A DNA stretch of 63,844 nt, counting the filler, from Globobulimina sp. (lineage: Eukaryota), in the NCBI GenBank assembly GCA_003354225.1. It is 23 parts of 23 records of this genome, joined end to end, with 100 filler letters (N's around TTAATTAATTAA, not from the genome) between each part and the next. Parts side by side here need not be neighbours in the genome. Positions count along the whole stretch, not along the records: positions 16,691 to 19,371 come from PIVH01005376.1; 22 more parts are not named here. One strand, given 5' to 3'. The notes under the pieces are model-generated. The model was given only the letters and a program-made list of their open reading frames with translations, made no database searches and was not told where the DNA came from. This document shows, piece by piece, positions 2,683-63,678 of the stretch. Made by a program: the position numbers and the translations under genes. The stretch's first letter is position 1. Each line of letters starts with the position of its first letter.

Positions 2683-2782
2683 NNNNNNNNNNNNNNNNNN
2701 NNNNNNNNNNNNNNNNNNNNNNNNNNTTAATTAATTAANNNNNNNNNNNNNNNNNNNNNNNNNNNNNNNNNNNNNNNNNNNN
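2683..2782. other. Artificial contig linker (first of 22 identical linkers)
   Basis: N44-TTAATTAATTAA-N44 gives stops in all six frames and recurs about every 2.78 kb. Contig lengths fall monotonically from 2682 to 2678 bp. Confidence 0.99.
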
Positions 2783-3733
2783 AATAGCTCCGCCTAAATG
2801 TCCGATGAAATCAACTTGATACAAATCACTGTGTAGTTTTAATATTTCATGTCCGCCCATTTCTTTTTGACCATATTTCCAAAATCGATGAAAATCTTTA
2901 AAAGCAATAGAAGCATAATATCCACAATAAAACATCCAAAATGTATCCTCAAATAATTTTATGGTATGATAGGTTACTTTTTGATGCGTTACTTCATCAA
3001 TATTGATATTACCAATTTCTTCTTCAGCTCCTTGCTCTTTTCCTTGCTGACCTGCAGTTGTTACACCTTCCGGAGTATCCAAATCATAGTCTAAAATGTC
3101 ATAATTTAAGTTAGCTTGATCCGTTATATCAAGTAATCCATCAGCTGAAAAATCCAAATACTGCAATAATACGTCATAAAAATGATGCAATCTTTTGAGT
3201 ATTAGTTCCATTGAAATTAAACAATTAAATGCATATAAACCAAGTACAGAAACAGATGCACCGAGAGACCCTGGATTTTCCCAGTTTAAATCATCGTATT
3301 TTTGCGTAATTTCCTGGCACATTTTAGCATTATTTTTGAAAACAAATAATAACAATTTCTTATAAGAATTTTCCAATACATTGGCGATAAAACTGCCAAT
3401 AAAACCAGAGGTAATGTATAATGACCAAAATATGCAAATACTTCGCTTTTTGTTTTTGTTATCAATGCAATAAATTGAGCGATAACAGTTTGGTATAAAT
3501 GCTAACATATTGGATTTTAGATGTCCAATATCAGAATGCAAAAAATTGCTTGTTAAAAAAGTATGATACTTTTTTTGTTTGATTGCATCTTTTGATCGTA
3601 CTAAAATTGAAATATTTTGGTGGCTCACACATATCTGAGCTCCAAATATTGCAGAATGAACTGCTATAAATGCAATAACATTTGGTGTGCCATAAAAAAA
3701 AAGACTCTTCAGGTCTTGTCTGAAACTGGTCAT
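2783..3733 (-). CDS. Rhomboid-family intramembrane serine protease (3' partial)
   Basis: FLHSDIGHLKSNM (HxxxN), GSLGAS (catalytic Ser) and DFIGHLGGA (catalytic His), with several hydrophobic helices. Confidence 0.85.
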
Positions 3734-3807
3734 TATATAACGTTTTCTTGTCTAAAGCTAGACTTTAATTAATATATACAATCACATTACAGTGTACAGT
3801 CTGGATA

Positions 3808-5464: not shown

Positions 5465-6302
5465 NNNNNNNNNNNNNNNNNNNNNNNNNNNNNNNNNNNN
5501 NNNNNNNNTTAATTAATTAANNNNNNNNNNNNNNNNNNNNNNNNNNNNNNNNNNNNNNNNNNNNTTAGCACAACAATATGGATCACAGACAGCAGATAAA
5601 CACAACAAAAAAAGTCTCGAGTTATTGCAATTTATTGCAATTAAGGATATCTAGGTCCCAGGTCCAAATTTATATTGCGCAATATAAGAACAACCCCTAA
5701 TCGGAATTAACTAATGACCTTTGAGCCTCTTGGGCAATGGGTGGTGTCTGTTGTTGTTGGTTTTGTTGCCACAATACTAAAAGGCAATGATATTCTATGT
5801 ATCAAAATATTTAAAGATATTTCCTTTGTACCATCCGTTTCGGTGAAATTAATGGGATTAATCATCGGAATTAGCATCAGCAACAAAAAAATCAGAAAGC
5901 AGGTACTTTTTAATGCGAACAGTGTCAGGCTGAGACAGAAACGTTAGTTTTAAATAAAACAATCTGAATACCATTATTGCAACCAATCCTTTTCTACAAT
6001 ACATTGTGAATTAACTGGTAAAACAAATATTGAGTGATAACAAAACAAACAATGGTTTTGAATGAATTTATTAAAGTTTAAAAAACAAGATTTAACAAAC
6101 AATAACAATATTATTTCTTTTATTTTTTTTTTCTTCATCAAATGACAGAATCACATAAATTCTTTTTAATAAAACATCCACAGATAAAACTTATCCATGT
6201 ATCAGTTATTTATTATTTTCATCAAATGATGGTATACATTTATAATATCATATATTGATATTGTTTTTGTGATTGATTGCAAAAAATATATATATATAAA
6301 AC

Positions 6303-7728
6303 TTAGAATTCATATTTCTGTCTGACAACAGTATTATTTTTATTATTCAACGACAATCCGAATTCAAACTGTCCATCTTTACCGATGCGTGGATTTATAA
6401 AACCGTCGGGTTCAGACAGAGACACTTTTGATTGTTCCCGCGATTCAATATTAATATTCATATTTGCTTCGAATTCAGTGTCGATATCATCATTCATAGC
6501 GACATCCAAACCGCATATTATCGGATATGAAACCTGACTTTTTTCGTCATCATCAATGGCAACATTCATTTGATAATCACTCCAATTATCAGTTGTTGAC
6601 GAATCAGTTCGAATTCTCGATATTAATGATGGCGTCGGCGTGCATTCTGTAACATTTTCATGCATAAAATCATGATTATTCTCGATGAGAAAATATCTGT
6701 TCCGATTTAAAAATGGATGAACTAATAATTGTGTCATATCAATGCGGTTCGATTCAGTCACAAATATTTTATTCATTAAATCGAGCGCATCTTCGTTTAT
6801 TAACCTTTATTAAACACAAAAAAATGTACGTATATTCTGGTTAAAATGCAATACATTTTATATACCTTAATCTCCTCCAATTTTTTAACAATGGTTTGAC
6901 CCCTTTTTTGATCAAATAATAAAAGCGTTGGTCAGTGACACATGGCTTTGCCACCAAATGTGTGCCAATCAGCATAATGAAAAGGATAACGCCCATGGAC
7001 CAAATATCAGCTTTCCTCCCATCAAAACTGCCATTCTCCACAAATACTTCAGGTGCCATGTATGCCAATTTACCGCATCGCTCATTCAAAAGGAAATTAT
7101 TTGTCTTCTTAGCTAGGCCAAAATCGATGATTTTTATGGATGGATTATGGATGTGATTATTGTTGCTATTTTCGAGTCCGTTTAACATTATATTTTCCAG
7201 AGATAAATCTAAATGGACAATGTGCTTTGAATGCAAATAAGAAACGGCGTGGCCTAATTTTATGAATATGCGCTGTACATATTTTAAGAATGGATTTTGG
7301 AGACATTCCGTATGATTCATTGTGCGTTGCGGCAGTTTTTGCATTGTATCGCAGTACTTTTTCATGTGGCCCTTTTCATGAATTTTTTTGATGTAATTGA
7401 ATAGTGAGCAATGGCAATATTCCATGGCGTACATATAACATAATGGTTCCTCCCATGTACGCAATATACGGATGATCGACAGTGGGCAGTCTGGTAATGA
7501 TGATAAATAATTTAATATTGATATTTCATTTAAATGGTTTTCTTTAATTTTGGTTCCTTGCCGACACTGCGATAATTGTACCAATACTTTCCATGTTTCC
7601 TTTATTGCTACAAATTCATTGCTTAATGTGTCCATGCCGCGGTACATTCGACCTTGTAAAGTGTCGCCAATTACATCTTTGATGATAAATCTAGCCGAGG
7701 GAGACAACTCGCTAAGGGACAGAGACAT
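6303..7728 (-). CDS. Ser/Thr protein kinase, 2 exons (intron 6805-6865)
   Basis: VAIK, HLDLSLEN, DFGLA, YMAPE and DIWSMG motifs. Removing the GT-AG intron joins WRRLR to LINEDALDLMNKIF. Confidence 0.92.
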
Positions 7729-8400
7729 GATGCAAAAGGATTAATTTGCAATTAAGTGTGGTGTCGGACTAAGCAGTTGCATACTTTGCGTATAAATTGA
7801 TAAACGTATCTAAATTAAATGGTAAGTAGAAGAAGAAAGCAACGCAAGAATTTAAGCATTCACAAAGAAGCCCAAATCAAATAAAAGAACCATTAAAAGC
7901 ACCGCAGGATATTATCGACTGCATTGTGAATGATTGCTCATTGAATATTAACATATCAACGATAACGAAATAACAGAAATTGCATGGGATAAATTTGCCA
8001 GCAGTCAAGTTGCCAACGTAATATATTTAGATATAACGAAGAAAGCTGTTAGACAGAATAACAGGTTCTGGCATTACAAAACCACAACAATTATGGATAG
8101 AAAGCAGGAAAAAATATATCGATACACAAACAACAGAAACGAATTCCAAACCCAACAACAAAAATGACAGTCAATCAAAATATGGATTATAAACAAGAAA
8201 AGAAAATGAATAATATTGATTATACAACAAACACTGCAAAAAGAGGNNNNNNNNNNNNNNNNNNNNNNNNNNNNNNNNNNNNNNNNNNNNTTAATTAATT
8301 AANNNNNNNNNNNNNNNNNNNNNNNNNNNNNNNNNNNNNNNNNNNNTGATTATTAGTGATATAGCGCAAAATCGCAGAATATTATAGTTTTCTACTAAAC

Positions 8401-8832
8401 TAAGCCAGAGTTGTCATATAAGATGATCTCCGATGTATCGTTACTGACACCCAAGTGCTTAAACACTGAGTATACTTCGTCTTGCATAATACCGCCGTAT
8501 GTATCGATTAAACGGCAAAAATCAAACACTTCCAATGGGAGATTAACTGCGTGTTTTATATGTCCGCGTTTGTATCCTTGTTCGTGTGACAAATCAATCA
8601 CAATCTGTTTGCTTAAATCGCGGCGTTTTATATCTGCGGTGTGTCGGAATGTGACATAATGTTCCGGAGCTACCATGTCTTTGAATTCTTGCGCCACTGC
8701 GAGGTCCCCTACATTTGCTAAACGAAATGACCGGTCTGTTATATATCGCTTTGAGCTGATTGGATATAGTAATTGTTTTGATAATCGTTTCGCGTTGAAG
8801 GTGCGTGAAATACTTCGTAAGATTCGTGACAT
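8401..8832 (-). CDS. Rhodanese/sulfurtransferase, first exon, probable mitochondrial presequence
   Basis: YKRGHIKHAV...LGVSNDTSEIILYD is a rhodanese N-domain. The N-terminus is Arg/Ser-rich. Probable splice donor TTA|GTTTAGT at 8400. Confidence 0.8.
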
Positions 8833-11459: not shown

Positions 11460-12709
11460 TTATTCGTATCGTCCAGATTCTTTCATGGCATCAACCAATG
11501 TCCAAGCAAATGAACTAGTGTCTTCACTCTTATTTCTGCTCAATCCCAACATCACATGCAATCTCCTTACAATATCACTAAAATCTGGTCTATGGAGCGG
11601 AGATTGACTCCAACAGTCCTTCATTAAACCTGCATAAGTTCCCAATATATATGATGGAATATGTGGCCTTTTTCCATCTAAAACATATTTTTTTATATCG
11701 CGCAAATCATCCATGTCATCATATAATGTCTGTTCTGTACACAATTCCCATAAAATCAATCCAAAACTATAGACATCGATAGATTTTGTGTACAATACTA
11801 GGTTCTCTTTACCGTAGGTAAAATGCTTCAAAATCTCGATATGTTCCAATAATTCAGGTGCCATATAAGCCACTGTCCCGCATTCAGTGGTCAATGCATC
11901 CAAAGAATTGCCTGCTTCCACCATATTTAATGTGCCACCCAATGATGGTGCATCAAATGATATATTTGATTTATTTTCCCCATCAACCACATCCAACTCA
12001 GGTACTCCAAGAAATTTACTGTTGGTTGGTGGCGGTGGCGGCGGTGTCGGTGGTATGGCTGCACCGTTATTACAAGGCGACAAATTAAATGATGACGGAC
12101 TTTCATCACCTTCTTTTACATGTTTTTTCTTGTTTTTTTTGTGTTTTTTGCGTTTTTTACTTTTTTTATGTTTTTTATGCTTCTTTTTATGTTTTGAACT
12201 GTCTGATAATTCGTTGTTAATTTCAGTGGTCGACAATCCATTCTTATTCTCGGCACCAACCATTGAAATTGTTAATGAATCTGCAAAAAGCGGCGGCAAT
12301 GAATTATTTTTTTTGGCATGACTATGAATGGAATGACTGGATCCAACTGCATTATACTTATAGTTATTTTTTTTGGTACCAATTGCAAACGGTAATGTAT
12401 TTGGTAACGAATCCGGTGTCAACCACTGGTTTTTCATAGATGGTGTCAATAAAAAGGATGAATTGACCCGATCCTGATGATTTTTTCTCAGTTTACGCGC
12501 TAATCCGAAATCACAAATCTTTGCAACTAATCGGCCTTCTTCTTTCATGAAGGTCACCAACACATTATTCGTATTAAGATCGCGATGTATGATATCCTTA
12601 TGATGCAACACTTGCATTCCGGTGGCTATATCCAATGCAATCCATAACCTCTCTTGCGATGATAATGGTGAATTTTTATTGCTTTGTTTGCTTTTTTTTT
12701 TACGTAATG
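11460..12709 (-). CDS. TKL-type protein kinase C-lobe with a long activation-segment insertion; N-lobe not found
   Basis: RLWIALDIATGMQVLH, IIHRDLNTNN, KICDFGLAR, GTVAYMAPE, DVYSFG and CWSQSPLHRP. Probable splice acceptor at 12710-12711. Confidence 0.85.
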
Positions 12710-12779
12710 CTATGTATTAAATTCAATTATGATAATTATATTATAACGTTTTTTATAGCACAGATTTACATTTTACAAC

Positions 12780-13673
12780 ATGTCTACAAACGCAGCAAAA
12801 ACAAAAAAACAGATTTTATTGCAACCCATCAACTTAAATGAATTTACACAGGAAAAAAATGAGGTAAATTGCGTCAGGAAATGTATACTGTCCATGGCCT
12901 ATCCGATGGAATCTGTCGCACAAATTCCATCCGTTACATCCTATGGAGTTTGGTACATGGCGCCGGAATATTATTTATTTGAATCTCTCGTTATGAGTGT
13001 AATCGCAGTTATTATTATATTAATGGCAGATTCGTTGCTTATAGCAGACGAATGTTACACTCTCAACACACAACAATCGTTATTTGAATACATTTTAAAA
13101 TATTTATTGACCATTGATTTCGGTTTGCATATATATTATAAATCGGGCAATGCACCACACGGCAGAGGAGCATGGTGGTTATTACAACCATGTTCGGTCA
13201 ATCACATTTTAATGTTAATAGTATTATGGAATCCATCATTTCTTACAACCCAACGCTTACAATATTTATTAACATTGACCTGTGGTGCTTTGAACGCATT
13301 GCTATTTCCAGATCACTCTACAAACACTCAATACCTTTCCGCGTATCATTTTTGGTTTCAACATCTTGCCATATACTTATTACCTCATTTGTGGTTAATA
13401 AGAAATGCAAATCTCATACAAGAAACGCTATCTATTTTCAACGTACTCAAAGCGCACGCATTCATGATGATATATTGCTTCGTCATCGTACAAATCTGTG
13501 CGATTGCAAGCGGTGTCAATATAAATTATTGTTTATCTCCGCCCAAAACAAAGATATTAACTCAACATGGCAAAAAATATCGCATTGTTATGACCTGTCT
13601 GATGTTCGTAGGACATCTCATATGCGGATATATTATACCTACATCATTGTTATACATAGCTTCCTATTTCTAA
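12780..13673 (+). CDS. TMEM164-like integral membrane protein (true start may be ATG 12894)
   Basis: YYK...LLQPC, ALLFPD, FWFQH and VNINYCLSPP follow the TMEM164 pattern, with multiple TM helices. Confidence 0.7.
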   Translation: MSTNAAKTKKQILLQPINLNEFTQEKNEVNCVRKCILSMAYPMESVAQIPSVTSYGVWYMAPEYYLFESLVMSVIAVIIILMADSLLIADECYTLNTQQSLFEYILKYLLTIDFGLHIYYKSGNAPHGRGAWWLLQPCSVNHILMLIVLWNPSFLTTQRLQYLLTLTCGALNALLFPDHSTNTQYLSAYHFWFQHLAIYLLPHLWLIRNANLIQETLSIFNVLKAHAFMMIYCFVIVQICAIASGVNINYCLSPPKTKILTQHGKKYRIVMTCLMFVGHLICGYIIPTSLLYIASYF

Positions 13674-13936
13674 TGCACTTCAAAAAAAGGCAAACATATA
13701 CAAAATTTGTGCATGTTTGTCGCAACACTTTTTTTGTGTTAATATTTATTACAACTGTTTCTATAAAAATTCAAAAAACAATGTTCACCAAAAACAATTC
13801 AAACAAACCNNNNNNNNNNNNNNNNNNNNNNNNNNNNNNNNNNNNNNNNNNNNTTAATTAATTAANNNNNNNNNNNNNNNNNNNNNNNNNNNNNNNNNNN
13901 NNNNNNNNNGGATTTGGTGCATATGCTAAGCGAATA

Positions 13937-14120
13937 CCGTAGGGCATGTAATGTTCGCGCGCATGTAATGTTCGCGCCAGCATGTTGGCGCGAACAATAC
14001 ATGCGCGGACAATACATTCTATATCCAAAATGGAGCGCGCCTCTATCGAGGCGCGAACAATACCTGCGCGAACAAAACATTCCGCGAACATAAAGTGCGC
14101 GAACATTACATGCCCTACGG
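13937..14120. mobile_element. 184-bp MITE (Tc1/mariner/pogo-type)
   Basis: Perfect 24-bp TIRs (CCGTAGGGCATGTAATGTTCGCGC, 13937-13960 and 14097-14120) with TA on both sides. Internal ~16-bp GCGCGAACAATACAT-like repeats. Confidence 0.85.
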
Positions 14121-14130
14121 TATGCGAGTT

Positions 14131-14391
14131 TGTTGGATACCGTTTCTTGGACAGAACGAATGGTAGAGACTTGGTTGTTTCGCAGTTCATTTTTATTGAT
14201 ATTATTGCTCTGTTATATGGATATTAGATCATTCCACATGGCCCGCATAAGAAGATAATATTTTTATCTTTCAAAATATGCAATGGTATGAATGATGAAT
14301 GATATATAACAAGAGACAAATTGAGATGATGATGAATGGCGAATACGATTTGGCGCTGCGACGCGTAGTGTCCAAGAAACGGTATCCAACA
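14131..14391 (-). mobile_element. LTR-like unit (TG...CA) with 23-bp perfect inverted ends
   Basis: TGTTGGATACCGTTTCTTGGACA at 14131-14153 and its reverse complement at 14369-14391. Minus-strand AATAAA at 14192-14197. Lies directly 3' of the gypsy pol. Confidence 0.6.
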
Positions 14392-14420
14392 AAAACGTTC
14401 AGTTCAAGAGTCACGACACT

Positions 14421-16590
14421 TTAATATAAGTCCCGCATTGAAGGTAGATAGGTGTCTTTGATGGTGTGGGCATTGAGGCCCCGATAATCGACACACATTC
14501 GCCGTTCTTTCTTCCCATTCCGAGTGGGTTTTGGGACTACAATCAATGGTGAAGCCCATTCTGATTCAGCTTCTTCGATAAATCCAGCGTTTTTAAGCTC
14601 TTGAATCTGTCGATGCATTTCCTCACTGTGTGCGTAACAATGAGGGTAAGGTTTCTTTGAAATAGGCATAGTGCCTGGCTTTAGAGTGATAGCGAATTCT
14701 TCGCCAGGTAAGACTCCAATGTCGGTGGCATTCTTGGCATAGCTGGACCTGTGAGCATTGATTAATTCCGTGAATAGCGCGCGGGTGCCAAGGTCGTCGA
14801 TCTCACTGCAATGAACTTGACTCTGAAAGTCGGCTCCGTCATCTTTGGAGATATCTATATCTTGGATGCCTGGATTTTCTAAGGCAGTTTGCTGCACTAA
14901 TATTTCTTCGTGATATCTCTTTGAGAGGGAACGGTCGGAAGCGTTGATGTAGACGTATTTGGTGACCCCATAATCAGTGTCCAAATCGCGGAAATAGAAT
15001 AATTGTTTCTGTTTCGCTTTCAGACTTGCGAAGTGTTTCCTTTTTAAAGGATATTCCATGTGTTTCCACATGTCACCCATATAAGTCTTCGTTGAGCATT
15101 TCTTGGGTCGCAGTATTTGAGAAAATCTTCCCATTGGGGTCTATGATTTGATAGCCCATTTTGAGGAATAGACTGCGACTGATGATAAATTTATGCGGCG
15201 AATTGTGCAAAAGATAAAACTTGGTAATCAAGTCGGCGCCTTTTGTACGAATATGGAGCGGAATATATTCTGAGATCATTGACGGTCCTGACATAAAGAC
15301 TTATAAGCATAAGTTTTATCAATACAACAGATACTAGCACCAGAATCGAACATACCTCGGATTCGCCCAAATAAGCTGGTATGCAAATCCATGTCCGCGG
15401 TGGTATTAGTACTGCCGTACAGGTCTAAATAAATAGGGTCTAAGCTTAGACTGATCTTTTCGGCGCTTTGCGCAATCGCGATGTTTTCCATTTCGACATC
15501 ATCGAAATCTTATTCGGTGTCATAGGCGACGCGTGCTTCATACTCGTCGCAAATCATCTCGGTTTCGTGCATAGTATCACAGTCTTCCGGCTGTACGAGG
15601 TAGATACTATGAAAATCATAGTTTTTGAAACGGTTAGAGACGCCGGGGATACTGATAAGTATAGTCATTAGTACCCTGCTCAATGTCCTGCGCTTCGGCG
15701 CTATCTTGAGTGTCGACAGCGCTGACAGCCATAATAGATCGAGTTGGTTCAACCACAGGCTTTGGTTGTGGCTGCCAATCTTTGAATTCGATACGGCGTC
15801 GGTTGGCAAGAGTCATTTTCTCGGCGGTGCCCGCTTGAGGATGTGCCTTAAGCCATTCTTGATAGGCTAACTTCTCTTTGTAGGCATAACATGTTTCCTT
15901 CTTATGCCCGGGCGTATCATCTGGAATCAACTCAATCTCCGACTCGTCAATTTCGTGCTCAGGTCCATTTTGACAGAGGAGAAAAATTGAGGCTTTGCTT
16001 GTCTGGCTCTTGTAGCCAATGGGATCGCAATCTTCAGTGTCAATCTGTGTACAGACTAGGGCTAAGACTGCGAGATTCTCGACTTCAAAGAGGCGCTGCA
16101 TACGAATACGAATCTTCGATTTATTCAATTTGGCACCCAAATCACTATCCATTACGACTTGCAATAATTTCTTATATCGAAAGCCTAATGCCATATTATG
16201 TAACTCGCAGGCGTTTTTGTAGGATAATAACCATTTCGGCACATCAGCGGTGGCGCTTAACTTAGGTTCATACTTCTCACAGATAGGTACCATCATCCAA
16301 ATTCTCGCCGACTAACTGTCGGCCTTGACGATAAACGAGCGGAGTCGCAATGTCCACAAAAATATCGCGCAATTCGGCTCGTTGGACCTCCTCGCGACTG
16401 ACGGACTCGATGTTTACATCGGTATTTTGTTGAACGCGGGTTAATTGCGCGATTTGGTTCGCTTGGGTGGCCATATTCGCTGCGTTTTGTCCAATGATGG
16501 CATTCGCCTGTGCCATTGGCGCTGTGTTGTGTTCAATTCCAGGATTGGCACTGCGAAATCTGCTACGAATATTGCGCGGGTCGGGCGAGC
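14421..16590 (-). mobile_element. Degenerate Ty3/gypsy retrotransposon: gag-like region, aspartic protease, start of RT; frameshifted and truncated
   Basis: Protease FDSGASICCI. RT KKPYP...EWASPLIVVPKP...RMCVDYRGLN. Partial knuckle GHKKETC. Several frameshifts. No YxDD, RNase H or integrase. Confidence 0.9.
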
Positions 16591-16690: not shown

Positions 16691-19101
16691 GCATTAGCTC
16701 TCAAACAAGAAAATACCGAATGTATGTTCTATAACTTACATTTTCAATGTCGTACATCGCTTACAATGCTTCTATATTTCCATCAAGTTTATCTTCGCAG
16801 ATTCGCACCACCAAAAAAATCATGCAACCCAAATTCGACTCAGTTTGAAACTTCCAAACATTTTTTGTGCGTAGTTTCAAACCAAAATCATTGCACTGAC
16901 CTTTTTTCTCAACATTTTGAGCCTAAAACCACCAAAAAAAATATACAGTGTTATATGAGCATGTCGCAGCTGTGTCGCACCCCAAAAATACCGACACTTT
17001 TCACAAATATTGGAGCGCAGAAAAAGTTCGCTCATATTTCAAGCCGAGCGCCACCGCCTTACTCGCCGTAACACAGTGGCTATCCGACAACGGCTTCGAT
17101 GCAGAAAATGGCAAAATATCCATGGTGAACGACTATGGAAATGTAATCCATGTCTCGTTAACGTGCGGCGATGCGAATAGGCTCTTAAATGCACAGTATA
17201 TCATTTACGAAAACACCAAGAATGGCAATACCCATTTACGCGTAAAAGACGGTGTATACAATATTCCAGATACGGTCCATGAACACATTGATTTTATGTC
17301 GCCCACCATACGTTTTCCAATCAGTAAACATTCGCTGCAGATACAAACTATGAGTGCAAAACAGATTGAATTTGTCAAATCGCATACAAAAGATTCCAAG
17401 AAAGAGTACAAAATCGGCGTACAAGACGACCAAGAAGCAGATGACGACGATACGGATGAGACTGATGACAGTGATACAACTCCAAATATACCGAGTCGGA
17501 TATTTGATTTGTATGATATGAATGATGCGGTGGCGGACATTATTGATGCGACGAGCAGCGATAGTTTGGATGATTCCATTTGTAGGCAATCCATTGCCTC
17601 ATTTATTCAGCAATATTATAGTGACAGTTCAGTGGAAATGCAATAAAATTTCTATTGTTTTTGCAGTTTCAAACGAATGTGATATTTTTTTTGTAGGTGA
17701 TATTGAGCTATTTCGTGAAAAATTGGACGTTTATCCAGAATCTGTCATGGAACGCGTGCCAATCACACAACCGCAGGGATTTGGATCCGAGGCAGAGTTG
17801 GATACTCAATATATTTCAGTTAAGTTTGAGTGACTTCAGTAAAAAAAAACTTCACTGTGCTTCATGATGGCTGCTTGCTTTTTGTTTGAAACGTGTCAAC
17901 GTAAACATTTTTTGTGTGTAGTCCACAGGCAAAGGAATATATACTTACGTGTATTACATCGATAGTGATGATATTTTTGTGAGCTTAGCCGAAGCAATAT
18001 TAGCTACTGACATACCGCCATTGGTCGTATCCATATCTTATGGCGCAGATGAATATGAATTAGGAGCAGATTGGGTGAGACGGTGTAACGAAGAATTTGG
18101 CAAATTAGCCTTAATTGGCACCACTGTATTAGCCTCATCTGGCGATTCTGGTATACGCGGCAATGACGATGATTGTCTATATGGTACCGGTGAATATAGC
18201 CAACAACAAGCAAATCACAACCCAAATCATAGAAATTTGTTGAAACAATCTGGCAAAGGTACAAAAAAAAGGCAATCCTCCGGTGAAAGTTATACATTTA
18301 TCGCTTCATTCCCTGCCTCAGCCCCTTATGTTACTGCAGTTGCGTAAAATTATTTTTTTATTTTTGTGTGAAATTTCCGGGAACCTATAAAAAAACACAC
18401 TTTTTTTCTTGAGTACAGTGATGCATGAATGTTCCCGGAAATTTTTGGGAACAACAAAATTAATCCAAATAAATAAAAATCTTTCAGGTTGGCGGCACAG
18501 AGGGCGGAATCGTGCAAGATTCCGTTACAGAGTGCACCGGAGAGACCGCATGGTTGTACAGCGGTGGTGGGTTTAGTGAGTTTTTTGAGGCTCCAGAATG
18601 GCAAACGGATGCTATAAATAATTATTTTTCGCAAGAAAGTGTTACTTTCCCTGATGAAGCTCGTTACACATCGACGGGAAGAGCCTATCCAGACATTTCC
18701 GCGCAATCTGTTGATTATGTCATTGCGTATGATTCTGAATTTTATTTAGTATCTGGAACGTCTGCGTCATCGCCGACCGTGGCGGGCATGATTTCGATGA
18801 TAAATTATGCGAGAATTAAGGCGGGGAAGTCTTCGTTGGGTTTCTTGAATCCATCGTTGTACGAATTGTACGATTCCGATCAAAGTTTAGTGGCAAACTC
18901 TATACTTTTTGGTGAAATACAACATATTTTGTTTCGATCGATGTAGGTTTGTATTTTAATGATGTGGTGGAAGGCTACAATATCGGTTGTGAGTGTGATG
19001 AGAATATTGGCTTTTATGCAGCAGAAGGTTGGGATCCTTTGTCTGGTGTTGGAACGCCAAAATTTTCACAATTATATGATGCTTTGTTGGATATGGATTA
19101 A
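16691..19101 (+). CDS. Tripeptidyl-peptidase I / sedolisin (S53), 5' partial; introns 16722-16948, 17627-17696, 17819-17921, 18339-18487, 18885-18946
   Basis: Prodomain, EAELDTQY, SISYG, SSGDSG, FPASAPYVTAVGGT, GRAYPDISA, GTSASSP and GWDPLSGVGTP. The five GT-AG introns restore one frame. Confidence 0.95.
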
Positions 19102-19532
19102 CTCAGAAATCAAACTATAGAAAACATAAAACTTTTTTTTGTTTTGTGTCATTTGCATTTTATGTTTGAACACTGTCTATATTTCTATTTGTTTCTTTTC
19201 TTCTCTTTCATGCATCGTCGCATCTGTTTGCTCAACAAAATAACTCTTGAAAGTGTTTCTGTTTTAATTTTCTTTTTTTTCTATTTTTTTTGAATCAAAC
19301 AAGTCTGAATTATAATCGATAAATAATCAAATTTAGACATTTTAAATATTTTTTTTTTTTTTTTTAATTATNNNNNNNNNNNNNNNNNNNNNNNNNNNNN
19401 NNNNNNNNNNNNNNNTTAATTAATTAANNNNNNNNNNNNNNNNNNNNNNNNNNNNNNNNNNNNNNNNNNNNAATTATATCATCGTTTCTGCTTTATTTTC
19501 GATTCACTGTATACATATAATATTAATTATAT

Positions 19533-25758: not shown

Positions 25759-27714
25759 TTATTGTCTCTGCGAAGTCCGAATGTATTGCGACAATTTCTT
25801 GGAAATAATTTCCGCCAATTTGGCAGATTTCAGCGGCAGTCGCAGATCCTTTTGCGTTTTGTAAGAGTGGCTGTCAATATACGCCAAATTGCTCGTCAAT
25901 GAAGATTGCGTCTCAAATGTCGCTGTTTTTTTAATTGTCGTCGAATTGGAATTGGAATTGGAAAAAGAATGATTCTGATTCGGATTATTCGGATGATTAA
26001 TATTCTGACGATTATAATATCTTTGCTGCAGTTTGAAAGTGCAAATTAACATTTTCTTGCCCGGCCGGTTCGAAATGGAAAAGAAAGATTTCCACGGATA
26101 AAAACTGACAAACTTCAGCTTGTTTTGCTTGCTTTGCGACCACCGACAAAGCAACAAGCCGTTGCCCAAAATGATAAACAGTTCGTGCTGATGGTTCGGT
26201 TCCGTCTCAAACGAGCCTTCAAACGAAATAAACGACAACAACTTATTCTGGCGGTCGTCGCGATCGCGCCCATCCTCTTCATTCTGGCGGTTGTACTCAA
26301 TGTCCATTCGAGTCAGGTTCTCCTTAATCAGCGCATCCGAGTACTTGTACTCTTTCATGATATTCATGCGCGAATAAAACATCCTTGTTTTCCTTTTCCG
26401 CGTCGAATTGATCAGCAAAGTCTGGTTTGTCACCGAAGGCAAAGTATTCCCAATTCCAGACACTAAGTCCGAGCCCAAATCCATGACTCCCACCAACGGC
26501 TTGCACACTAAGCCCATGACTCCCTGACCGAACCCGGCGATGGCTCCCTTGACCCCGTCCTCCTGCCCGCCCTGGATGGGGTCCTTCCAAATCCCCGAAA
26601 TGCCGGCCCAAGAATGCGACGCCAACTTCTTGCCGCCTTTAAAGATGCCGTCCGCCATATTCTTCGGCTTACTGTCTTGTTTCCCCTTCAACATTGACCG
26701 ATGTTTCGCGAAGTCGGTGTCGCCGGAAGCGTACGCTAAGCCGGTGCCGAGTGCCGAGGTCAGCGAGGAGACGCTGTGCGTGATGCCCTGGATCGACTGC
26801 TGCAGCAAAGAGTAAGTTCCTTTGCCAAAGCCCCGGAAGACTTCGCCCGGCGTAGTGCCGGCTTGCGGCTCGAACCAGAAATCCTGCAAACCGCTGCGGA
26901 CACTGTTGGTCAAACCGGCGATGTTTCCCAAGATCTCCAAAGAACCGATGATGTTAAAAAAGCCGCGCAGTAATTCCCCGCTGTAATGCGACGACAATCT
27001 GTTGATCAACGTCAAAGAGTCGAAGACGCGGTCCCTTTCGGCGTAGCCAGACACGCGAATCACCGCACAATCAAAGTTCACCACAACCACTCCGAACTGG
27101 AACATGATGTCGTTTAACAGCGGCACGTTGCCATTGTTGCTGCTGTCGCGTTTGTCGTTTAGTAGCGGCGCCAAATGTTGCTTCGTCGACGAGTTTAAGG
27201 CGCAGTATTCGTCGTAGTTGCTATTCATGTCCGTGTCGGCTTTATTTTCATTAATGAAAGTTTCGTCCAAATCGCGAAAGGAAACAATAAATTCCATGGG
27301 CGCCAGAAATAACTGTCCGAAATACATCGGTTGCGGCTCGTCCTTACCATTATGGTCGTTGCTGCTGGAGCTGTTTTGATAGGAATTGATTGAGGTGAAG
27401 ACGTAGAAAAAGTTGATTAGTTTTTGCAATGTGGCGCCATCCAAAGACAGTGCGAATTTCTGCGGCCGGACATTCAATATTTGCACATATTTACTCGACG
27501 AAGTTTGCGAACATAAATTTAATTGAAAGTCGAGCCACGGCAACTTCTTATTGGTTTTGCTGTGCCTGGCCGGGACCGGAATGCCTACGAATAACACGGA
27601 GGAGATGGCGTTGTTCATTTGGTTGTCGATTTGGAAGGAATCCAATGTGAAACGTATGCGCTGTTCATTGCGCGATAATAATAAGTTAAATTGCAACTTA
27701 TCGCCTGCAATGTA
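25759..27714 (-). CDS. VPS13: VPS13-family lipid transfer protein, C-terminal part (5' partial)
   Basis: FQIDNQ, IIGSLEILGN and the ATG2_C-like PIQGGQEDGVKGAIAGFGQGVMGLVCKP. Confidence 0.9.
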   Translation of the reverse strand, partial: YIAGDKLQFNLLLSRNEQRIRFTLDSFQIDNQMNNAISSVLFVGIPVPARHSKTNKKLPWLDFQLNLCSQTSSSKYVQILNVRPQKFALSLDGATLQKLINFFYVFTSINSYQNSSSSNDHNGKDEPQPMYFGQLFLAPMEFIVSFRDLDETFINENKADTDMNSNYDEYCALNSSTKQHLAPLLNDKRDSSNNGNVPLLNDIMFQFGVVVVNFDCAVIRVSGYAERDRVFDSLTLINRLSSHYSGELLRGFFNIIGSLEILGNIAGLTNSVRSGLQDFWFEPQAGTTPGEVFRGFGKGTYSLLQQSIQGITHSVSSLTSALGTGLAYASGDTDFAKHRSMLKGKQDSKPKNMADGIFKGGKKLASHSWAGISGIWKDPIQGGQEDGVKGAIAGFGQGVMGLVCKPLVGVMDLGSDLVSGIGNTLPSVTNQTLLINSTRKRKTRMFYSRMNIMKEYKYSDALIKENLTRMDIEYNRQNEEDGRDRDDRQNKLLSFISFEGSFETEPNHQHELFIILGNGLLLCRWSQSKQNKLKFVSFYPWKSFFSISNRPGKKMLICTFKLQQRYYNRQNINHPNNPNQNHSFSNSNSNSTTIKKTATFETQSSLTSNLAYIDSHSYKTQKDLRLPLKSAKLAEIISKKLSQYIRTSQRQ

Positions 27715-27814
27715 NNNNNNNNNNNNNNNNNNNNNNNNNNNNNNNNNNNNNNNNNNNNTTAATTAATTAANNNNNNNNNNNNNNNNNNNNNNNNNNNNNN
27801 NNNNNNNNNNNNNN

Positions 27815-31320: not shown

Positions 31321-33274
31321 CTATGATAAAAATTTAATAATAACTTTTTTATTTTTATCATATTTAAAGCCATTATTTTTAAATTTATTTGATTTTAAGA
31401 AGTGCGTTAAATTAACGCCGGTAATCGACATCGCAGTGCATTTCGTTTGGAAATCTTTTAACTGAATCACAACCTCCGTATCATCCCTTTCTTGCGCATC
31501 TTCAGTGTACGTCATCTGTTTCCATTTAATTTCTTCATCGACCTCTTGATTCAATAAATGTAGAATTAATTGATTGGTATCTTTCGAATAATTCAAATAT
31601 TGATTAAAATGTTTCTTCAAATTCAATTGGATGGACTTCTTTTGCGTTTTGATAAACGACTCCAACATTACACGAATAGCGATATCCACATCGTCAGACC
31701 GCACAAACTCACACAAATGCAATTTTGCGCGAGCCTCAGCGATACGTAATATCGATTCGATATGGCGCACTGCGATGGGTATACCGCCCGCGGAAGACAT
31801 CGATTTCTGTCTCAAATCACTGTAAAACTCTGCAATTTTGTCGCGATCAATGTTATCCAATTTGGGACGACAGGTTTGCTTTGCAAATAGAATATATTTT
31901 TTCAACTGTTCCTGCGTCAGATTCAATGAATTTATCTGCTCCGTTTCCAGCACCTCGTCCTCTTCGCGCACCGTGGCGGGATGGCATTTGATATGATTAT
32001 TCACCACGAACTTAGCCAACATCTCATCGTTCACTGCGTCCACTTTGTCTTTCACCACCGATAACACGTCAAATCGAGATAAAATCGGATCGGTTAAGTC
32101 CACATTTTCGATAAAAGTCAAGCTGGAATCATAGCGGCCGCGTAAAGGGTTCGCCGCTGCAATCACAGCACAGCGCGCTTGCAACGTGGCAATGATTCCA
32201 GCTTTGACACGGAAATGGTTTGTTGTTCCATGGCCTCATGGATAGAAACGCGATCTTTCTCGTTCATTTTGTCAAATTCATCAATTAAACAAATGCCACG
32301 GTCCGCCAATACCAACGCACCGCCTTCCAACGTCCATTCCCCGCTCATACGATCTCTCCGGACACTCGCAGTTAGACCGACGGCCGAGGCTCCTTTGCCG
32401 GTGCTGTACACCGAGCGGAATGCGATCTTATTGATATATTTCAAGAATTGCGATTTGCCCACGCCCGGATCGCCTAATATTAAAATGTTTATATCGCCGC
32501 GGACCCGATGCTTATTGCTATGGATCTTCTCTTGTCCGCCGAGTAAAGCGTATAATATCGATTGTTTGATATATTGGTAGCCGTAAATCGAAGGACACAC
32601 CACTTCATCAAGCAATATCTGCTCTAAATCTGGTATCTTACTAAGTGCATATAAAAAAAAAAGTTTTTTAGAGAAAAAACATTTTCCTTTTTTTTATTTA
32701 AAACAGGAAAGTAATATTCCAGTCATTATACCTTAGAGTATTGGTGAAATATAATTTCTCCTCATCGGAAATCTCAAACTGCGAATAATAATCACTTTCT
32801 TTTAAGATATTATTCGCTTCGATGATCGTAGAAAAAACCGGGAACGAATTCAGCGATTCAATCTGCGCCGAAAATATATTTTTATAAATGCCGGTCACTT
32901 GGATCTCCTCTCCCGGCCGTATACTATCACACAAATCATCGATTAATATCACATCTCTACTCCTCGGGATCCGGCCCGCCGGCACTGCGGAAGGCGACTC
33001 TTGTAACACAATCTTTTGATAGTTCCTGTATAATGTCTTGCTTTCATTCAATTTAAACGGTCCATTCCCTGTGCAATCCGGACACGATGCCGGTTTTACT
33101 AAATCGTCGCCTCTCTGCCCACCACCGTTAGTCTCCACATTCTGTGCGATGGGCGATGTGGTAAAGCCACATTTCATACAATCAAAGCGGACTAACTGTA
33201 ACTGCGGGAATATGTAAGTTCGCCGGGTGCAGACACCATTGACCTGGACGAAGGAATTTAAGTGTAATTGCCGC
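31321..33274 (-). CDS. MCM2: DNA replication licensing factor MCM2 (5' partial; intron 32641-32731; 1-nt frameshift near 32204)
   Basis: Zn finger, [45 protein letters not shown] and PIAVRHIES. Confidence 0.93.
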
Positions 33275-33673: not shown

Positions 33674-35281
33674 CTAATGTTTTATAACAGGCATTAAGAC
33701 GTTCCAAGGATTTCTGTATATAACCATTCTTTCTCTGACAGATTCCAATTTATCTGGATCAGATCTATCTTCAAAACCTCGCATTCTTTCGTGACGAACG
33801 AGATGTTTTCTATAAATCTAAAATTAAAATTATTAAAATATTTCTGTAAAATTTTTTATTATTGTTTAAAAAAATACCTCTGGTAATAATTCTGCAGCTG
33901 GTAATAGATATAGCAATTGATTTAAATTCATACCACGGTTTTCAATTAAACCATCACGAAATTGTATAAACCAATTATCATTACAAAATATCGGATACAT
34001 CCTAGATATCATTTCAACAGTAGTCTGAAACAATTTTAAGAATAAATAAGTAATGTAATGAAATTTAAATTCTAAAAATGTTACACGCCAAGGTCTAGGA
34101 TTTTCATAGTGTTGTAATGGTTCAGAAATATCAGAGAAAAAATTGTTGTCATACTCGTTAACAGTCAAATATTTTTGTTCCAAAAAACGTGTACGTATTA
34201 AAGCAGAAGGTGCTTTAATAAATATTTGACAATTATTTAAATTAATAAATTGACCACAAAAACCATGAGATCCTATTGGCTTAGTCATAAGTTCCATAGC
34301 AGCCACTGTGTCTGTTCTTTTTAAATTCAATTTTTTCTTTAACCTTAACAAGTAATCAACAGGAACAAACCAACATTTTGTTTCCAAAATTAATCTATAA
34401 ATAATAATATTTAAAGAATTATAATTAACATATAAAAATTAAAAGGATATACCTATCAATCGACTGTTCCTCCGATCTTTCTCTGATAATTCGGTCAGCC
34501 AATTCTCCATTAATATTATTAATAGTAAATCTTTCTAACGTATCTACAGTAAGATGAAGTTGTTGACGTTGTCTCTTGAATGCAAATAAAATGCTAATAG
34601 CTGCTGTTAAACTGTATTTCGTAATAACTTTTGAAAAACCGACGTTATCCATATAAAATGTACCACTTTCTCTAGATCTTTCATTGAATCGTGTTAATTT
34701 TTGAAAACATATCGCAATTTGACATAAAATGTTTTCATCCTATAAAAAATATTGTGAATAAAGTTTCTTCAAACAATATAAATTTTTAAGAACTATTGTT
34801 GACATATAATTGAATCGTAAAATTTAGTAATAATATATACAAATTTATAATTTACTTACCCTTGATTGATCTTCCCAATTATTATACATTATATCATTTG
34901 TTTCTTCTCCTTCTAACATACGAAAACGTTCATTAATAATATTTCTTTCTATTTCTTTATTTTCAGCCATGTAGGTTTTGAATAATTCAGCTGCATCATC
35001 ATCAAATGTGTATCTTCTGCTTCTATCCAATTTATCGCTATTCTAAAGTAAAAGTTAATCAATAATTTGTATATTTTATTAAAATAAAATAAACTTACAA
35101 CCATAGAATATGCTAAACCTTTTGTATAAACAGTTAAATCAGACATTTCCAATTTAGGTCCATAATCGCCAGACTCACTACTCAAAGGCATCATTATTAT
35201 TTTCAATCTGAAATTTAACGCTTTATTTATGTGTCTGCTATGTGGCCAAAAATTAAACAATGTATTAAACTTCGCATACAT
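33674..35281 (-). CDS. Multi-exon hypothetical protein (about 4 introns)
   Basis: ORF pieces 34949-35281, 34845-35030, 34425-34652 and 33866-34387 join in frame through GTA...AG introns. Confidence 0.6.
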
Positions 35282-44495: not shown

Positions 44496-44873
44496 AAATC
44501 GACTGGTGGCAAAGCACCAAGAAAACAGTTAGCAACCAAAGCAGCCAGAAAATCGGCGCCAGCAACCGGAGGAGTTAAGAAAACGCATAGATTCCGTCCA
44601 GGAACCGTTGCTTTGAGAGAGATCCGCAGATATCAGAAATCAACGGAATTATTATTGAGAAAATTGCCATTTCAAAGATTAGTAAGAGAGATTGCTGGTG
44701 ATTTTAAAAATGATTTACGCTTTCAAGCAACTGCTATCATTGCATTACAAGAAGCAACCGAGGCATATATGGTGTCAATGTTTGAAGATACCAATTTGGC
44801 CGCTATTCATGCCAAACGAGTTACTATTATGGGAAAAGATATTGCTTTGGCAAAACGATTAAGAGGAAATTAA
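44496..44873 (+). CDS. H3: Histone H3 (5' partial, from K9)
   Basis: [29 protein letters not shown]...[15 protein letters not shown]...AIHAKRVTI. Intronless in the part seen. Confidence 0.98.
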
Positions 44874-44926
44874 ATTATTAATCGCGTCTTATTTATCTTT
44901 GTAAATATTCTTTTTATTTTTTACCA

Positions 44927-44942
44927 GGTGTTTTTCAACACC
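44927..44942 (+). promoter_or_regulatory. Histone mRNA 3' stem-loop
   Basis: CCA-GGTGTT-TTTC-AACACC-ACCAA: 6-bp stem, 4-nt loop and canonical flanks, about 53 nt after the H3 stop. Confidence 0.85.
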
Positions 44943-45819
44943 ACCAATTTAATGTACAACGTTTAAGTTTTCAGATCGCATCTTTCTTGACATGCATTGT
45001 TTTGCAAAATCTTTTTTCATCTAACTGTTGTGGCTGGCAAGGATATGTTGTAGTTGGTTATGACTGGGTGTAATATATATATTATTTGAGATATTAAATA
45101 TATTAAAGAAATGGTGGACCTGTCAAGGGATAATATATTTATTCTTTGATAATATATAAAGTATTTTTTAGAATATATTATCCCTTGACAAATATTATTC
45201 GGAACACCACTGCATGCCATTAGAATAGCTTCTATAAAAAACAAAAAGCAAATATTGATGATCGAGGCAAATTTAGATGTAAACAACTCATTTCATCGCA
45301 TTAGGGAAAACTCCACATAGAAGTGAAAAAGTCCACTAAAAAAAACAAATGCCTACTTAACATGACAAATTCTTTTCTATGTTTCGTTTGCTCGTGAAAA
45401 TATCACTGAATTATAACGGTGCTTTTTCCCTATTTCAATAGTCTCATCATCATCCATTTTATGCACATGTACAAGTGCATAATTCATGTATTCTTCATTC
45501 ATGTTTTTGACTGAAGTTGACTGAAGTTTGACATTTGTTACATTTATTGTATTCTTGAGTTTCAAATCAAGTTTTGACATTATTGATGACAATTACTCAC
45601 ATAGATTAGGAAAATGTCCCCAAAAATATCGTCATATACCAGCAAAATTAAGGAAACATAGGCAGACTATTTCCCGGAAGTGTTTTGACATATTTGCAGT
45701 TCCCGAGCATTCACGAGCATTACCAGGGATTGGTTTGAAGTGATTTTCACCTAACTGTGTAGTAAATTTCCTTGCAAAAAAAGCTTTACTTCAAGTCTAC
45801 AAAAATCAGAAACTACTCA

Positions 45820-58756: not shown

Positions 58757-60392
58757 ATGATTTTATGGGAAATGATAACACAGAATGCCAGAAATCCACA
58801 GAGTGGACAGAATAGGTTCCAGGCCCTACGATATATCCTTCAACGCGATGATGAATATCTCACTCGTAAATGTGCCGAGGCATTTAACCACGAAACTGCA
58901 TCTTCCGGCGACGTCGATGGAGCAACACGCCATTACGGTATGCTCACACTGCAAATGGTCGAAACTATATTGGTATAATGCCAATAAAATGTTATTTTGG
59001 AAGCTTATCGGTGAAGCAAATGAAAAGAGAGCAACATATAAAAACCGTGCAAATGGTCTCTATAACAATTGGAGGAAAAATGCGATGATATGTCGCTATT
59101 TTTGAATGTATTTGCGGTATGGTATCAAAGTAAGTGGTTGCCAATGAATCCACGGTTAATTGATAAGTTTTTGTGTATTGTGAAAGATTTCTATTACAAT
59201 GCATTTCGAACTGATGAAAACATTGAACGCTTGAAGAAAATTTTGAAAATATTTGCGTTTTTAATGCAAACCTGTTATGATAATGTGACTAATAAGAAAC
59301 CGCTATTTATATTACCGTTGTACAATTTGTTCGCATGGACTTTGTGTATTTTATGTGATGAATGGGAGAGAGCAATGAAGTCAGAACAAAATGTTATAAT
59401 TCAGGTATTTTCATCGACAAAGATATGGATCAAAATTATTTTAGATGAAGGTAACAATATTGATATCTCTGCGGATATGAAAAATAGAGTTATGGGAATT
59501 GCGGTGTTTTTATTCAACAAAATAAGCGCAGAGAAAAGTGAATGCCGATCATTTGAAAAGAGAATCAGCGGCGCTTTATCCAGCATTATCATTATGGGCG
59601 GAATGGAGAAAGCGAAATGGCCGGAATTGTGTAACAATGCAGAAACAAATCAACAAATAAATGAAAAACGCACGGATATAATGGCTGCGTGTAATGATAT
59701 GTGCGATGAAAAAAAGGTATTAATATTGATATTTTGTAAAATAAACAGTTTTTTTAATATTGATTATAAAACTTAGAAACGGAGTATTTGTAAACATGCG
59801 GTCGGAAACAATATTAATAAATTGGAGTGCAGCAATAATTAATGTATTAATGCGTGCGATTAGTCATATTTTTGCACAAAATGCGAATAAACGGCGAATA
59901 AACGGCGAATTTTTTGAAAAAAATAATATCGATGGAAAATCGTTGCGAAATGTTGGACATAAAGAGTTTAATGCAAATATTATAAAGCATAATAATGGCA
60001 ATACAAAGGTACGTGGAGCGGCTGCGGCAGTATGGTTTGGATTAAATGCGTTTGATTTCAGTAAATTGGATGAAAAGGATTGTGAGATTGCGATGTTTGG
60101 CATTGATGACGAGGTTGCTGAGAATAAAGAGAACAACGATGAGAATATGAATGCTATTATTAATGAGATGGATACTATGAATTTAGATGAAATAAACCGT
60201 TTATGTGCACAGTTTGATTCCTATGATAATGATATAAAAATGAGTTCTAACCCAAATACGGAAAACAATGATTTGGAGGAGAACAATGATTCGGAATACA
60301 ATGATTTGGAGATCAAAGACAATGATATGTCGAACACGAATGTGAGCTCGAGATATAGTCTCTGGTCTGATTATAATCCAAATAACAGTTGA
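58757..60392 (+). pseudogene. Fragmented hypothetical gene
   Basis: Four overlapping ORFs in different frames that I cannot join cleanly by splicing. Confidence 0.45.
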
Positions 60393-61240
60393 GTTATCAT
60401 AGCAAGCTTTTGGAAATCATTTGTTTTTGTGTCAGATTGCATCAATATCAAAACGGACTTAACCTATAAACACTTTTCATAAACATAAATTACCACAGAA
60501 AGATCACGTCCAATATCAGAAAAACAACAACATTGGCTTTATGCGACCGAGGGGCCGTGATACTATGATTAGAGGATAGGGAACTTTACGCAGTCTCTGG
60601 ACCAACCCACGTCCCATGAAAAACATAGGTATTATGGGAGCGAGGGTTCAAACACAAAGTTCAATGCACCAAATCATCGGATCCGCCATTTCTTTTAATT
60701 AAAATCGAATGTTCCTTGTGATGCCAATTGCTTGTTCAACATTGTTGTAATCAGTGGTATTAATTGGTATTTGGTATCGTATCTTTGTTATAAGTTGTCT
60801 ATGAAAAAAGAGCAAGAAATAAATAAGTATATTAATTAATTATTAATGAGTCAAACACGACATTGGAACAATCGGGAAAAAATAAATAATAATAAAATAA
60901 AGCAAATAGAATTTATTTTAATAAATACTATTTGATAAAGCCCGATTGCCCGCGTGTAACGTGAATGTAATTTAATGAGCCTAGAATGTGTAAATTGCAT
61001 TGAAGGCAAACTGATTTCACACAGGAGAATTTAATATGAATTTGTGAAGTTAATTTGTATGTATATNNNNNNNNNNNNNNNNNNNNNNNNNNNNNNNNNN
61101 NNNNNNNNNNTTAATTAATTAANNNNNNNNNNNNNNNNNNNNNNNNNNNNNNNNNNNNNNNNNNNNGGGTAAACGGGTCAAAAGGAGTGGAGTAATTCCA
61201 CTTTTACTGGCCTTTTTTGGGTAAAATATAAAATAACGAG

Positions 61241-62872: not shown

Positions 62873-63678
62873 TTATTCAGCTGCGGACAAATTATCATCA
62901 ATTAAACTATGAATATGTTTACTTAAATATCCATTTATTATATACGTTTTATCATTGTTTGGGACATCCCAATTAAATCTCTTTTCAGTTGCAATTGGTT
63001 CATGATTGCTTTTTAATTTTCCATTAACTGTAAATTTGTAGGTTTTCATACAAATGTAAATTAATATTACACAAAAGCACAGATCGGGATCGAAAAACGT
63101 TAACTGTGTGGTGTCGACGTCACATCATAGCAAATATTGGTAGGTGTTACATTGTTGCATATTTCAAATATGGTACATCGATCTCGATCTCTCTCTTTTT
63201 GCTCATCAATTGGCGATGCATTGGATAAATTTAATGACGGTATATCAATGGATAAATTATAAAAGGTACACTCTTCGTCATCAACATATTCATCATATTC
63301 GAATTCATCGTATTCATCATCTGATGAAGTGAGTAAATGATTTATAAACAAAGGAGGAGGGGGTGTTAAACGCTCAATTAATGGAATTGAATCAATATCA
63401 TCTTCATTATCGTCTGTATCATAGTCATTGTTATTAACTGATAATTCAATGACATTGAGATCATCGTTACTGTCTGAATTGGAACCATATAAAACTGATG
63501 AATGTGTAATTATTAATAATGTACTTGGAGTTGATGCATAGGATGCATAGGATGCTGAATCTGGTGTTGATACTTTACTTATCTCTTCTTTTGGTTTAAT
63601 TGTGATAATTCGCGACTTATTTTGTTCAACATTGTTAGGAATTGTGCTTTCGATTGGTGTTGATTGGTTTTTCATCAT
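62873..63678 (-). CDS. Acidic low-complexity hypothetical protein (intron 63028-63104)
   Basis: ACA|GTTAAC...TACAG joins in frame to a second exon of about 50 codons. The 3' end is uncertain. Confidence 0.55.

Follow-up and report, generated by a model that had tools for sequence, protein, structure and literature searches.

A 63,844-base stretch of the genome of the foraminifer Globobulimina sp. (GenBank assembly GCA_003354225.1), referred to below as the window, carries an S53 peptidase gene with five introns in its piece of the assembly. Four of these introns open with the donor A|GTTNNGT, where the bar marks the exon's end, and the fifth opens with AAT|GTATGT (16722). A|GTTNNGT is a real donor subclass with a linked sequence pattern. 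With little more than even confidence, we regard the introns that carry it as ordinary GT-AG introns of the major spliceosome with a second kind of 5′ splice site, to which the standard U1 small nuclear RNA (snRNA) would bind one base out of register.

The S53 peptidase gene and its introns

The window consists of 23 pieces (2,679-2,682 nt each) separated by 100-base spacers (44 N, TTAATTAATTAA and 44 N), which lie at 2683-2782, 5465-5564 and so on with a period of about 2782 bases. Adjacent pieces are possibly unlinked, and open reading frames (ORFs) that cross a spacer (e.g. 2735-3751 and 25759-27762) are partly artefact. The whole S53 peptidase region studied here lies inside the piece at 16691-19371. 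Read contigs were placed on this piece only, and the read evidence is limited to this gene.

The gene encodes a member of the Peptidase S53 family (sedolisin / tripeptidyl-peptidase I). Its first long exon codes for a pro-kumamolisin activation domain (Pfam PF09286, E 1.2e-24), and the catalytic domain contains the serine motif GTSASSP. The protein aligns with its homologues over the full length, and tblastn with 11 full-length relatives gave five collinear blocks on the piece. The gene is built as follows, with the evidence for each feature; X1 to X4 are read runs.

16691-16721, plus strand: end of the upstream exon, ALALKQENTE against LALKQQNTE in the homologues; the piece starts at 16691; joint 16721>16949
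16722-16948, plus strand: intron 0, 227 nt, GT..AG, ordinary donor AAT|GTATGT; spliced contigs of X1 and X4, both with joint 16721>16949
16949-17626, plus strand: exon with the pro-kumamolisin activation domain, ending ..QQYYSD; PF09286 and tblastn
17627-17696, plus strand: intron 1, 70 nt, donor ACA|GTTCAGTGG; homology, X4 joint 17626>17697, X3 contig 17574-17792
17697-17818, plus strand: exon (..SDIELF..LDTQYIS); tblastn, 65-80% identity to homologues
17819-17921, plus strand: intron 2, 103 nt, donor TCA|GTTAAGTTT; homology, X4 joint 17818>17922, X3 contig 17798-18331
17922-18338, plus strand: exon (STGKG..PYVTA); tblastn and alignment
18339-18487, plus strand: intron 3, 149 nt, donor GCA|GTTGCGTAA; homology, X4 joint 18338>18488, X3 contig 18324-18498
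18488-18884, plus strand: exon (VGGTE..GTSASSP..YDSDQ); 84% identity to homologue P0001, tblastn
18885-18946, plus strand: intron 4, 62 nt, donor AAA|GTTTAGTGG; homology, joint 18884>18947 in X1, X2 and X4, X3 contig 18619-19051
18947-19101, plus strand: last coding exon, stop TAA at 19099-19101; ends ..LYDALLDMD before the stop, as in homologues

The ends of the four GTT introns were examined by homology. All GT/GC/AT..AG/AC pairs up to 45 nt from each boundary were enumerated, and the in-frame, stop-free models only were scored against nine foraminiferal transcript-derived homologues. For all four introns the top-scoring pair was the one that the initial annotation had chosen, and its lead over the runner-up ranged from 63 to 144 summed BLOSUM points.

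Read contigs gave a second line of evidence. Run X4 has a depth of hundreds to thousands over the exons, and 143 of its 169 placed contigs are at least 99% alike. Its contigs contain all five joints listed above, each of which removes a GT..AG intron. The joint 17818>17922 has zero positional ambiguity, with 114 nt on its shorter side. Those of introns 1, 3 and 4 can slide by 2, 4 and 4 nt, respectively, because GT, GTTG and GTTT recur after the acceptor; GT-AG ends are obtained only at the leftmost position. Run X3 is DNA-like; its depth is about 5, and it has contigs that read through all four GTT introns. Five GT..AG joints in RNA-like contigs, against an unspliced DNA-like run, place these introns with the U2-type GT-AG introns. 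Sequence, homology and X4 joints agree on the four donors initially proposed for this gene (ACA|GTTCAGT at 17627, TCA|GTTAAGT at 17819, GCA|GTTGCGT at 18339 and AAA|GTTTAGT at 18885).

Runs X1 and X2 come from another organism. Their transcript contigs are 90-95% alike to the S53 exons (16949-19332) and collinear with them across the same junctions, with differences that are mostly scattered single positions; this transcript is the orthologue of a close relative or a paralogue. When metagenomes were scanned for intron-bearing genomic relatives of the S53 gene, solely the intronless contig of P0001 itself came up.

A fifth GTT donor lies in a separate gene, on a separate contig piece from the S53 gene:

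8392-8403, minus strand: donor TTA|GTTTAGTAG of a sulfurtransferase-like gene (thiosulfate/3-mercaptopyruvate), G+1 at 8400; the acceptor lies beyond the piece end (8347)

The rhodanese domain of this gene breaks off at profile position 71 of 102. All nine homologues read ..ILYDNSGL|LACRLWF or LASRLWF across the boundary, where the frame in the window continues with GLV and two stops, in accord with the donor TTA|GTTTAGT suggested earlier at 8400 (minus strand). An alternative GT 5 bases past 8400 would put V and Y where the nine relatives have L and A. For both the S53 and the rhodanese proteins the best relatives are transcript-derived (MMETSP/EukProt) and 74-84% identical, one of them labelled 'Ammon...'; the rhodanese protein of Reticulomyxa filosa is just 41% identical to that of the window.

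Sequence pattern of the GTT donors

Twenty donors were tallied across the window (9 verified, 9 probable and 2 candidate), close to the 'about 20' that the initial annotation had been able to place. The nine probable donors were placed by ORF bridging alone. Among the verified donors, A at -1 and GT at +6/+7 are present in all five GTT sites and in none of the four GTA sites (Fisher P = 0.008 for each), and no GTT site has G at +5. With the nine probable donors included, A-1 is found in 5/5 GTT versus 1/13 GTA sites (P = 0.0007) and G+6/T+7 in 5/5 versus 0/13 (P = 0.0001). Donors with G at -1 are GTA in 9 cases out of 9. The linkage of GTT with A-1 and with a GT at +6/+7, as well as the rule that every G-1 donor is GTA, had both been put forward from the sequence at the outset, and both hold in the present tally.

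The GTT donors share further letters: U at +3 (5/5), A at +5 (4/5) and a purine at +8 (4/5). The exon end CA, which is expected of a shifted site, is represented by A-1 in all five and by C-2 in three. Over the window as a whole, the word AGTTNNGT shows no enrichment, with 24 occurrences against 25.5 +/- 4.8 expected. It is found on 24 of the 6130 GT sites (0.39%) as compared to five of the nine verified donors, and its presence at donors is therefore far from chance.

Predicted pairing of the GTT donors with U1 snRNA

Duplexes were computed with the standard U1 5′ end (AUACUUACCUG, taken from PMC4856993). With this U1 end assumed, the unconstrained lowest-energy duplex was in the +1 shifted register for the five verified and the two candidate GTT donors. 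For the verified five the shifted register provided 7-9 pairs and -1.9 to -5.5 kcal/mol, while the canonical register provided 2-5 scattered pairs and 0 kcal/mol, so that each of the five pairs poorly in the canonical register and better at +1. For all 13 GTA donors the canonical register was best, the one at 62015 being a near tie. The occurrence of canonical donors in the window, for example AGG|GTAAGT (34859), suggests that a standard U1 is present. Written as RNA, the GTT donor (C)A|GUUNAGU(R) has the letters of (C)AG|GUAAGU(A) displaced rightwards by one base, the first G being replaced by U. From the observed intron ends and the linked pattern we infer the pairing register, the standard nature of the U1 and the commonness of the class in the lineage.

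In the mechanism that we propose, the 5′ end of the standard U1 snRNA would bind the GTT donor one base out of register. G+1 would pair with C9, A-1 with U10, C-2 with G11 and U+3 with A7, followed by A+5 with psi5, G+6 with C4 and U+7 with A3, and U+2 would form a single mismatch with C8. Cleavage would still take place before the GU once U6, U5 and Prp8 take over. According to Tan et al. 2016 (PMC4856993), U6 need not follow the U1 shift, with which a cut that stays at the GU would fit. The same source describes the shifted register as experimentally proven for 5′ splice sites in human cells (Roca and Krainer 2009).

Evidence against the shifted register and alternative explanations

The initial annotation had gone on to suggest that the lineage may use the shifted register routinely. 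The donors are real, the linkage is present and the shifted duplex is the best one; the part of the claim that concerns routine use fared less well, given that a single gene accounts for four of the five cases, that the three genes chosen blind gave GTA donors and that the window had been picked on account of these donors. A number of points weigh against the shifted register or against its general use. Outside the S53 gene, which holds four of the five verified GTT donors, the class amounts to one verified donor and two candidates among about 15 donors. The rhodanese gene was searched because its donor at 8400 had already been flagged. Three conserved genes (P450 reductase, MCM2 and HECT ligase), chosen blind to donor type and placed by solved-structure sequences, yielded no GTT donor (0/3, all GTA). 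The window was selected for the GTT-donor feature, and the GTT share (5/9 of the verified donors, 5-7/20 of all donors, in a sample flagged for the feature) is therefore biased as an estimate of frequency. ORF-bridging picks are themselves possibly biased to canonical-looking sites, and the assignment of run X4 as RNA comes from its depth and joints. Within the donors, position +4, the counterpart of the invariant canonical A+3, varies (C, A, G, T, T), and the energies of the shifted register (-1.9 to -5.5 kcal/mol) are modest. An Rfam scan of the window found no snRNA gene, U1 and U6 included, at gathering thresholds or at E<=1.

The energies also bear on a different explanation, in which a second, variant U1 snRNA serves the GTT class (e.g. 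with A for C8, which would pair with CA|GUUNAGU free of mismatches) and the standard U1 serves AG|GUA. We consider this unlikely, although it deserves attention. For a hypothetical C8>A U1, the energies computed with the verified five are -5.4 to -9.8 kcal/mol, stronger than the range found for the standard U1, which adds to the points against the latter. The two donor classes stand sharply apart, with no intermediates in 20 donors. Variant U1 5′ ends are reported from other protists, for instance a diplonemid (PMC12621601), and humans are reported to express variant U1s (PMC3561869). On the other hand, no snRNA gene lies in the window, and a single standard U1 in the shifted register already explains the pattern. 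The same tentative standing applies to the wider form of this idea, in which Foraminifera would read AG|GUA by the standard U1 and CA|GUUNAGU by a dedicated variant U1, perhaps with a shift in U6 pairing.

A further possibility is that there is no special class, that intron definition or other factors let short introns get by with weak donors, and that the likeness among the GTT donors stems from shared intron origin together with small-sample luck. The concentration of four of the five cases in one gene speaks for it, as do the 4-nt direct repeats at the ends of introns 3 and 4 (GTTG and GTTT), and the short motifs common to introns 0, 1 and 2 could point to related origins. However, the fifth case (8400) comes from an unrelated gene and from another contig piece, and the four S53 introns vary in length (62-149 nt) and are without overall similarity. 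The shared letters sit exactly at the U1-pairing positions, and, by the frequencies in the window, five GTT sites out of five would have A-1 together with G+6/T+7 with a probability of about 2e-10. We judge this explanation to be rather improbable.

The donors might also be read with a bulge at +2/+3, where the standard U1 would pair normally with G+1 and U+2, U+3 would be bulged out, and A+5, G+6 and U+7 would reach psi5, C4 and A3. Such a register accounts for G+6/U+7 equally well, and PMC4856993 lists 68 predicted +2/+3 cases and describes single-nucleotide bulge registers as validated in human cells. It predicts A-2 and G-1, however, whereas A-1 was seen in 5/5, C-2 in 3/5 and A-2 in 1/5, and it gives no reason for the constant U+3. 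In all five donors the shifted register was more stable than the bulge, with a margin of 0.4 to 3.7 kcal/mol. We therefore doubt strongly that a bulge is what these donors have in common.

Minor-spliceosome (U12-type) introns have the donor consensus /RTATCCTT. No donor here matches it, and this type was rejected.

If pairing of standard U1 one base out of register, or its imitation by a variant U1, were to apply lineage-wide at a sizeable share of introns, this would show that the register in which 5′ splice sites are recognised can itself evolve. The lineage would then offer a natural system for how the cut site gets fixed independently of U1. In foraminiferal assemblies, gene finders that were trained on GTA and GTG donors would also annotate such genes wrongly. 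Should a variant U1 be responsible, 5′ splice-site recognition would be split in a lineage-specific manner.

Comparison with other 5′ splice sites

The GTT donors resemble the human shifted-register sites (Roca and Krainer 2009, as summarised in PMC4856993), in which the cut is likewise at GU, pairing with U1 in the normal register is near nil and good pairing is available one base over. TCA|GTTAAGT at 17819 matches in form the human-type example given in the initial annotation, ACA/GUUAAGU. According to that summary shifted sites are a rare oddity in humans, whereas here they would make up five of nine verified donors in a 64-kb sample flagged for the feature, with a register that is computed. 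What is new is the donor class in a foraminifer; shifted pairing itself is already known as a rare human mechanism.

Human bulge +2/+3 and asymmetric-loop sites (Roca et al. 2012; Tan et al. 2016, in the account of PMC4856993) also include GUU donors with the G/U one place deeper and with non-canonical pairing. As that account presents them, these sites keep AG at -2/-1 (e.g. CAG/GUUUAGU), while the foraminiferal sites have CA and the bulge is weaker.

Those portions of two papers on foraminiferal genes that treat introns (PMC3079666, PMC6783311) call them canonical and leave the extended donor sequence undescribed. The present introns have in common with canonical foraminiferal U2-type introns their GT..AG ends, their short length (48-227 nt here) and their T-rich 3′ ends. 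A search of the main texts of articles for introns or splice sites of foraminifera or Reticulomyxa gave no account of a GTT donor class.

U at +3 is the rule in the GUUUGU donors of the Entamoeba type, which have G+5 and U+6 in the normal register. The donors described here share U+3 with them; they differ in that none of the five has G at +5 and the G/U falls at +6/+7.

Short repeats in the S53 introns

Intron 3 contains an inverted repeat (18356-18384 / 18431-18459, plus strand) with 29-nt arms that are 76% complementary and 46 nt apart, and with the perfect core AAATTTCCGGGAAC / GTTCCCGGAAATTT. The repeat might cause the 149-nt intron to fold, or might be a small element that was inserted.

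Introns 0, 1 and 2 share short motifs (16856-16885, 17659-17677 and 17876-17922). The sequence AAACATTTTTTGTG(C/T)GTAGT occurs within intron 0, and intron 2 has it at its 3′ end, with 95% identity over 20 nt. GTTTCAAAC or its complement GTTTGAAAC is found 25-45 nt upstream of the acceptors of introns 1 and 2. These common motifs may be branch-site regions or pseudo-acceptors. A single repeat family as the source of the S53 introns was ruled out, only short motifs being held in common.

Intron 3 and the exon downstream of it both open with GTTG (18339-18342 / 18488-18491), and intron 4 and its downstream exon both open with GTTT (18885-18888 / 18947-18950). Intron 1 shares GT with the exon that follows, and intron 2 lacks a repeat of this kind. 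The repeats could be a trace of intron origin, in the manner of a target-site duplication, or could be due to chance.

Donors elsewhere in the window

The donors of the three conserved genes that had been chosen blind are listed first, followed by the two candidate introns with a GTT donor.

24080: donor ACG|GTATGA of the NADPH-P450 reductase gene; QYGATRIFELG against QLGAQRIFELG in human
32731: donor AAG|GTATAA of the MCM2 gene; homology to the solved structure
40611: donor CAG|GTATTA of a UBE3C-like HECT ligase gene; homologue spacing is kept
60388-60435, plus strand: candidate 48-nt intron at the end of a 214-codon ORF, donor ACA|GTTGAGTTA, acceptor TTTGTTTTTGTGTCAG|A
63028-63104, minus strand: candidate intron from the initial annotation, donor ACA|GTTAACGTT, without GT at +6/+7; third-ranked in ORF bridging

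The candidate at 60388 emerged when each of the 24 AGTTNNGT sites was compared with the ends of ORFs. Alternatively, the ORF may simply stop at the TGA at 60390-60392; a homology search with the ORF that ends at 60388 gave seven partial matches only, all of them weak. The donor at 63104 and the donor ACA|GTACGT at 62015 were the best or near-best candidates by ORF bridging, and a homology search with the gene that contains both gave no homologue.

Ab initio ORF bridging left GTA and GTT alternatives within 1-2 score units of each other at several junctions (6865 vs 6889, 35098 vs 35101 and 62208 vs 62202). With alternatives as close as these, the coding score by itself leaves too much ambiguity for donors to be fixed. 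Alignments to PDB sequences did not decide the kinase intron at 6865, and bridging gave no intron-like candidates at the ORF junctions of piece 6 (13910-16590). A candidate at 2329 (minus strand) was rejected, as its position is upstream of the adaptin start codon and an intron that ended at the nearest AG would measure 38 nt.

At 35098-35101 (minus strand) there is a tandem donor, ATG|GTT|GTAAGT, in which two in-frame GTs lie 3 nt apart and share the acceptor at 35043. The choice between them adds or drops one codon, and either could be usable.

Other genes in the window

Two MCM2 ORFs (32166-32693 and 31324-32235, minus strand) overlap in different frames, the overlap point being at about 32199-32205. 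Their matches meet at position 154 of the MCM P-loop profile with no genomic gap, and there is thus an apparent 1-base frameshift. This is either an error of the low-coverage draft assembly or the mark of a broken copy.

A kinase ORF begins in the middle of its domain, with profile position 95 at residue 14 (ORF pair 11463-12716, minus strand, and 12759-13670, plus strand). The DNA upstream of it is occupied by an ORF of the TMEM164 family on the opposite strand. A truncated kinase would account for this, as would 5′ exons located outside the piece.

A core histone gene is located at 44496-44870 on the plus strand (PF00125, E 1e-41). Downstream of it, at 44922-44967 on the same strand, there is a histone 3′ UTR stem-loop (RF00032, 32.6 bits against a gathering threshold of 34, E 1.6e-05), which suggests that histone mRNA is processed here by way of the stem-loop and not by poly(A) addition.

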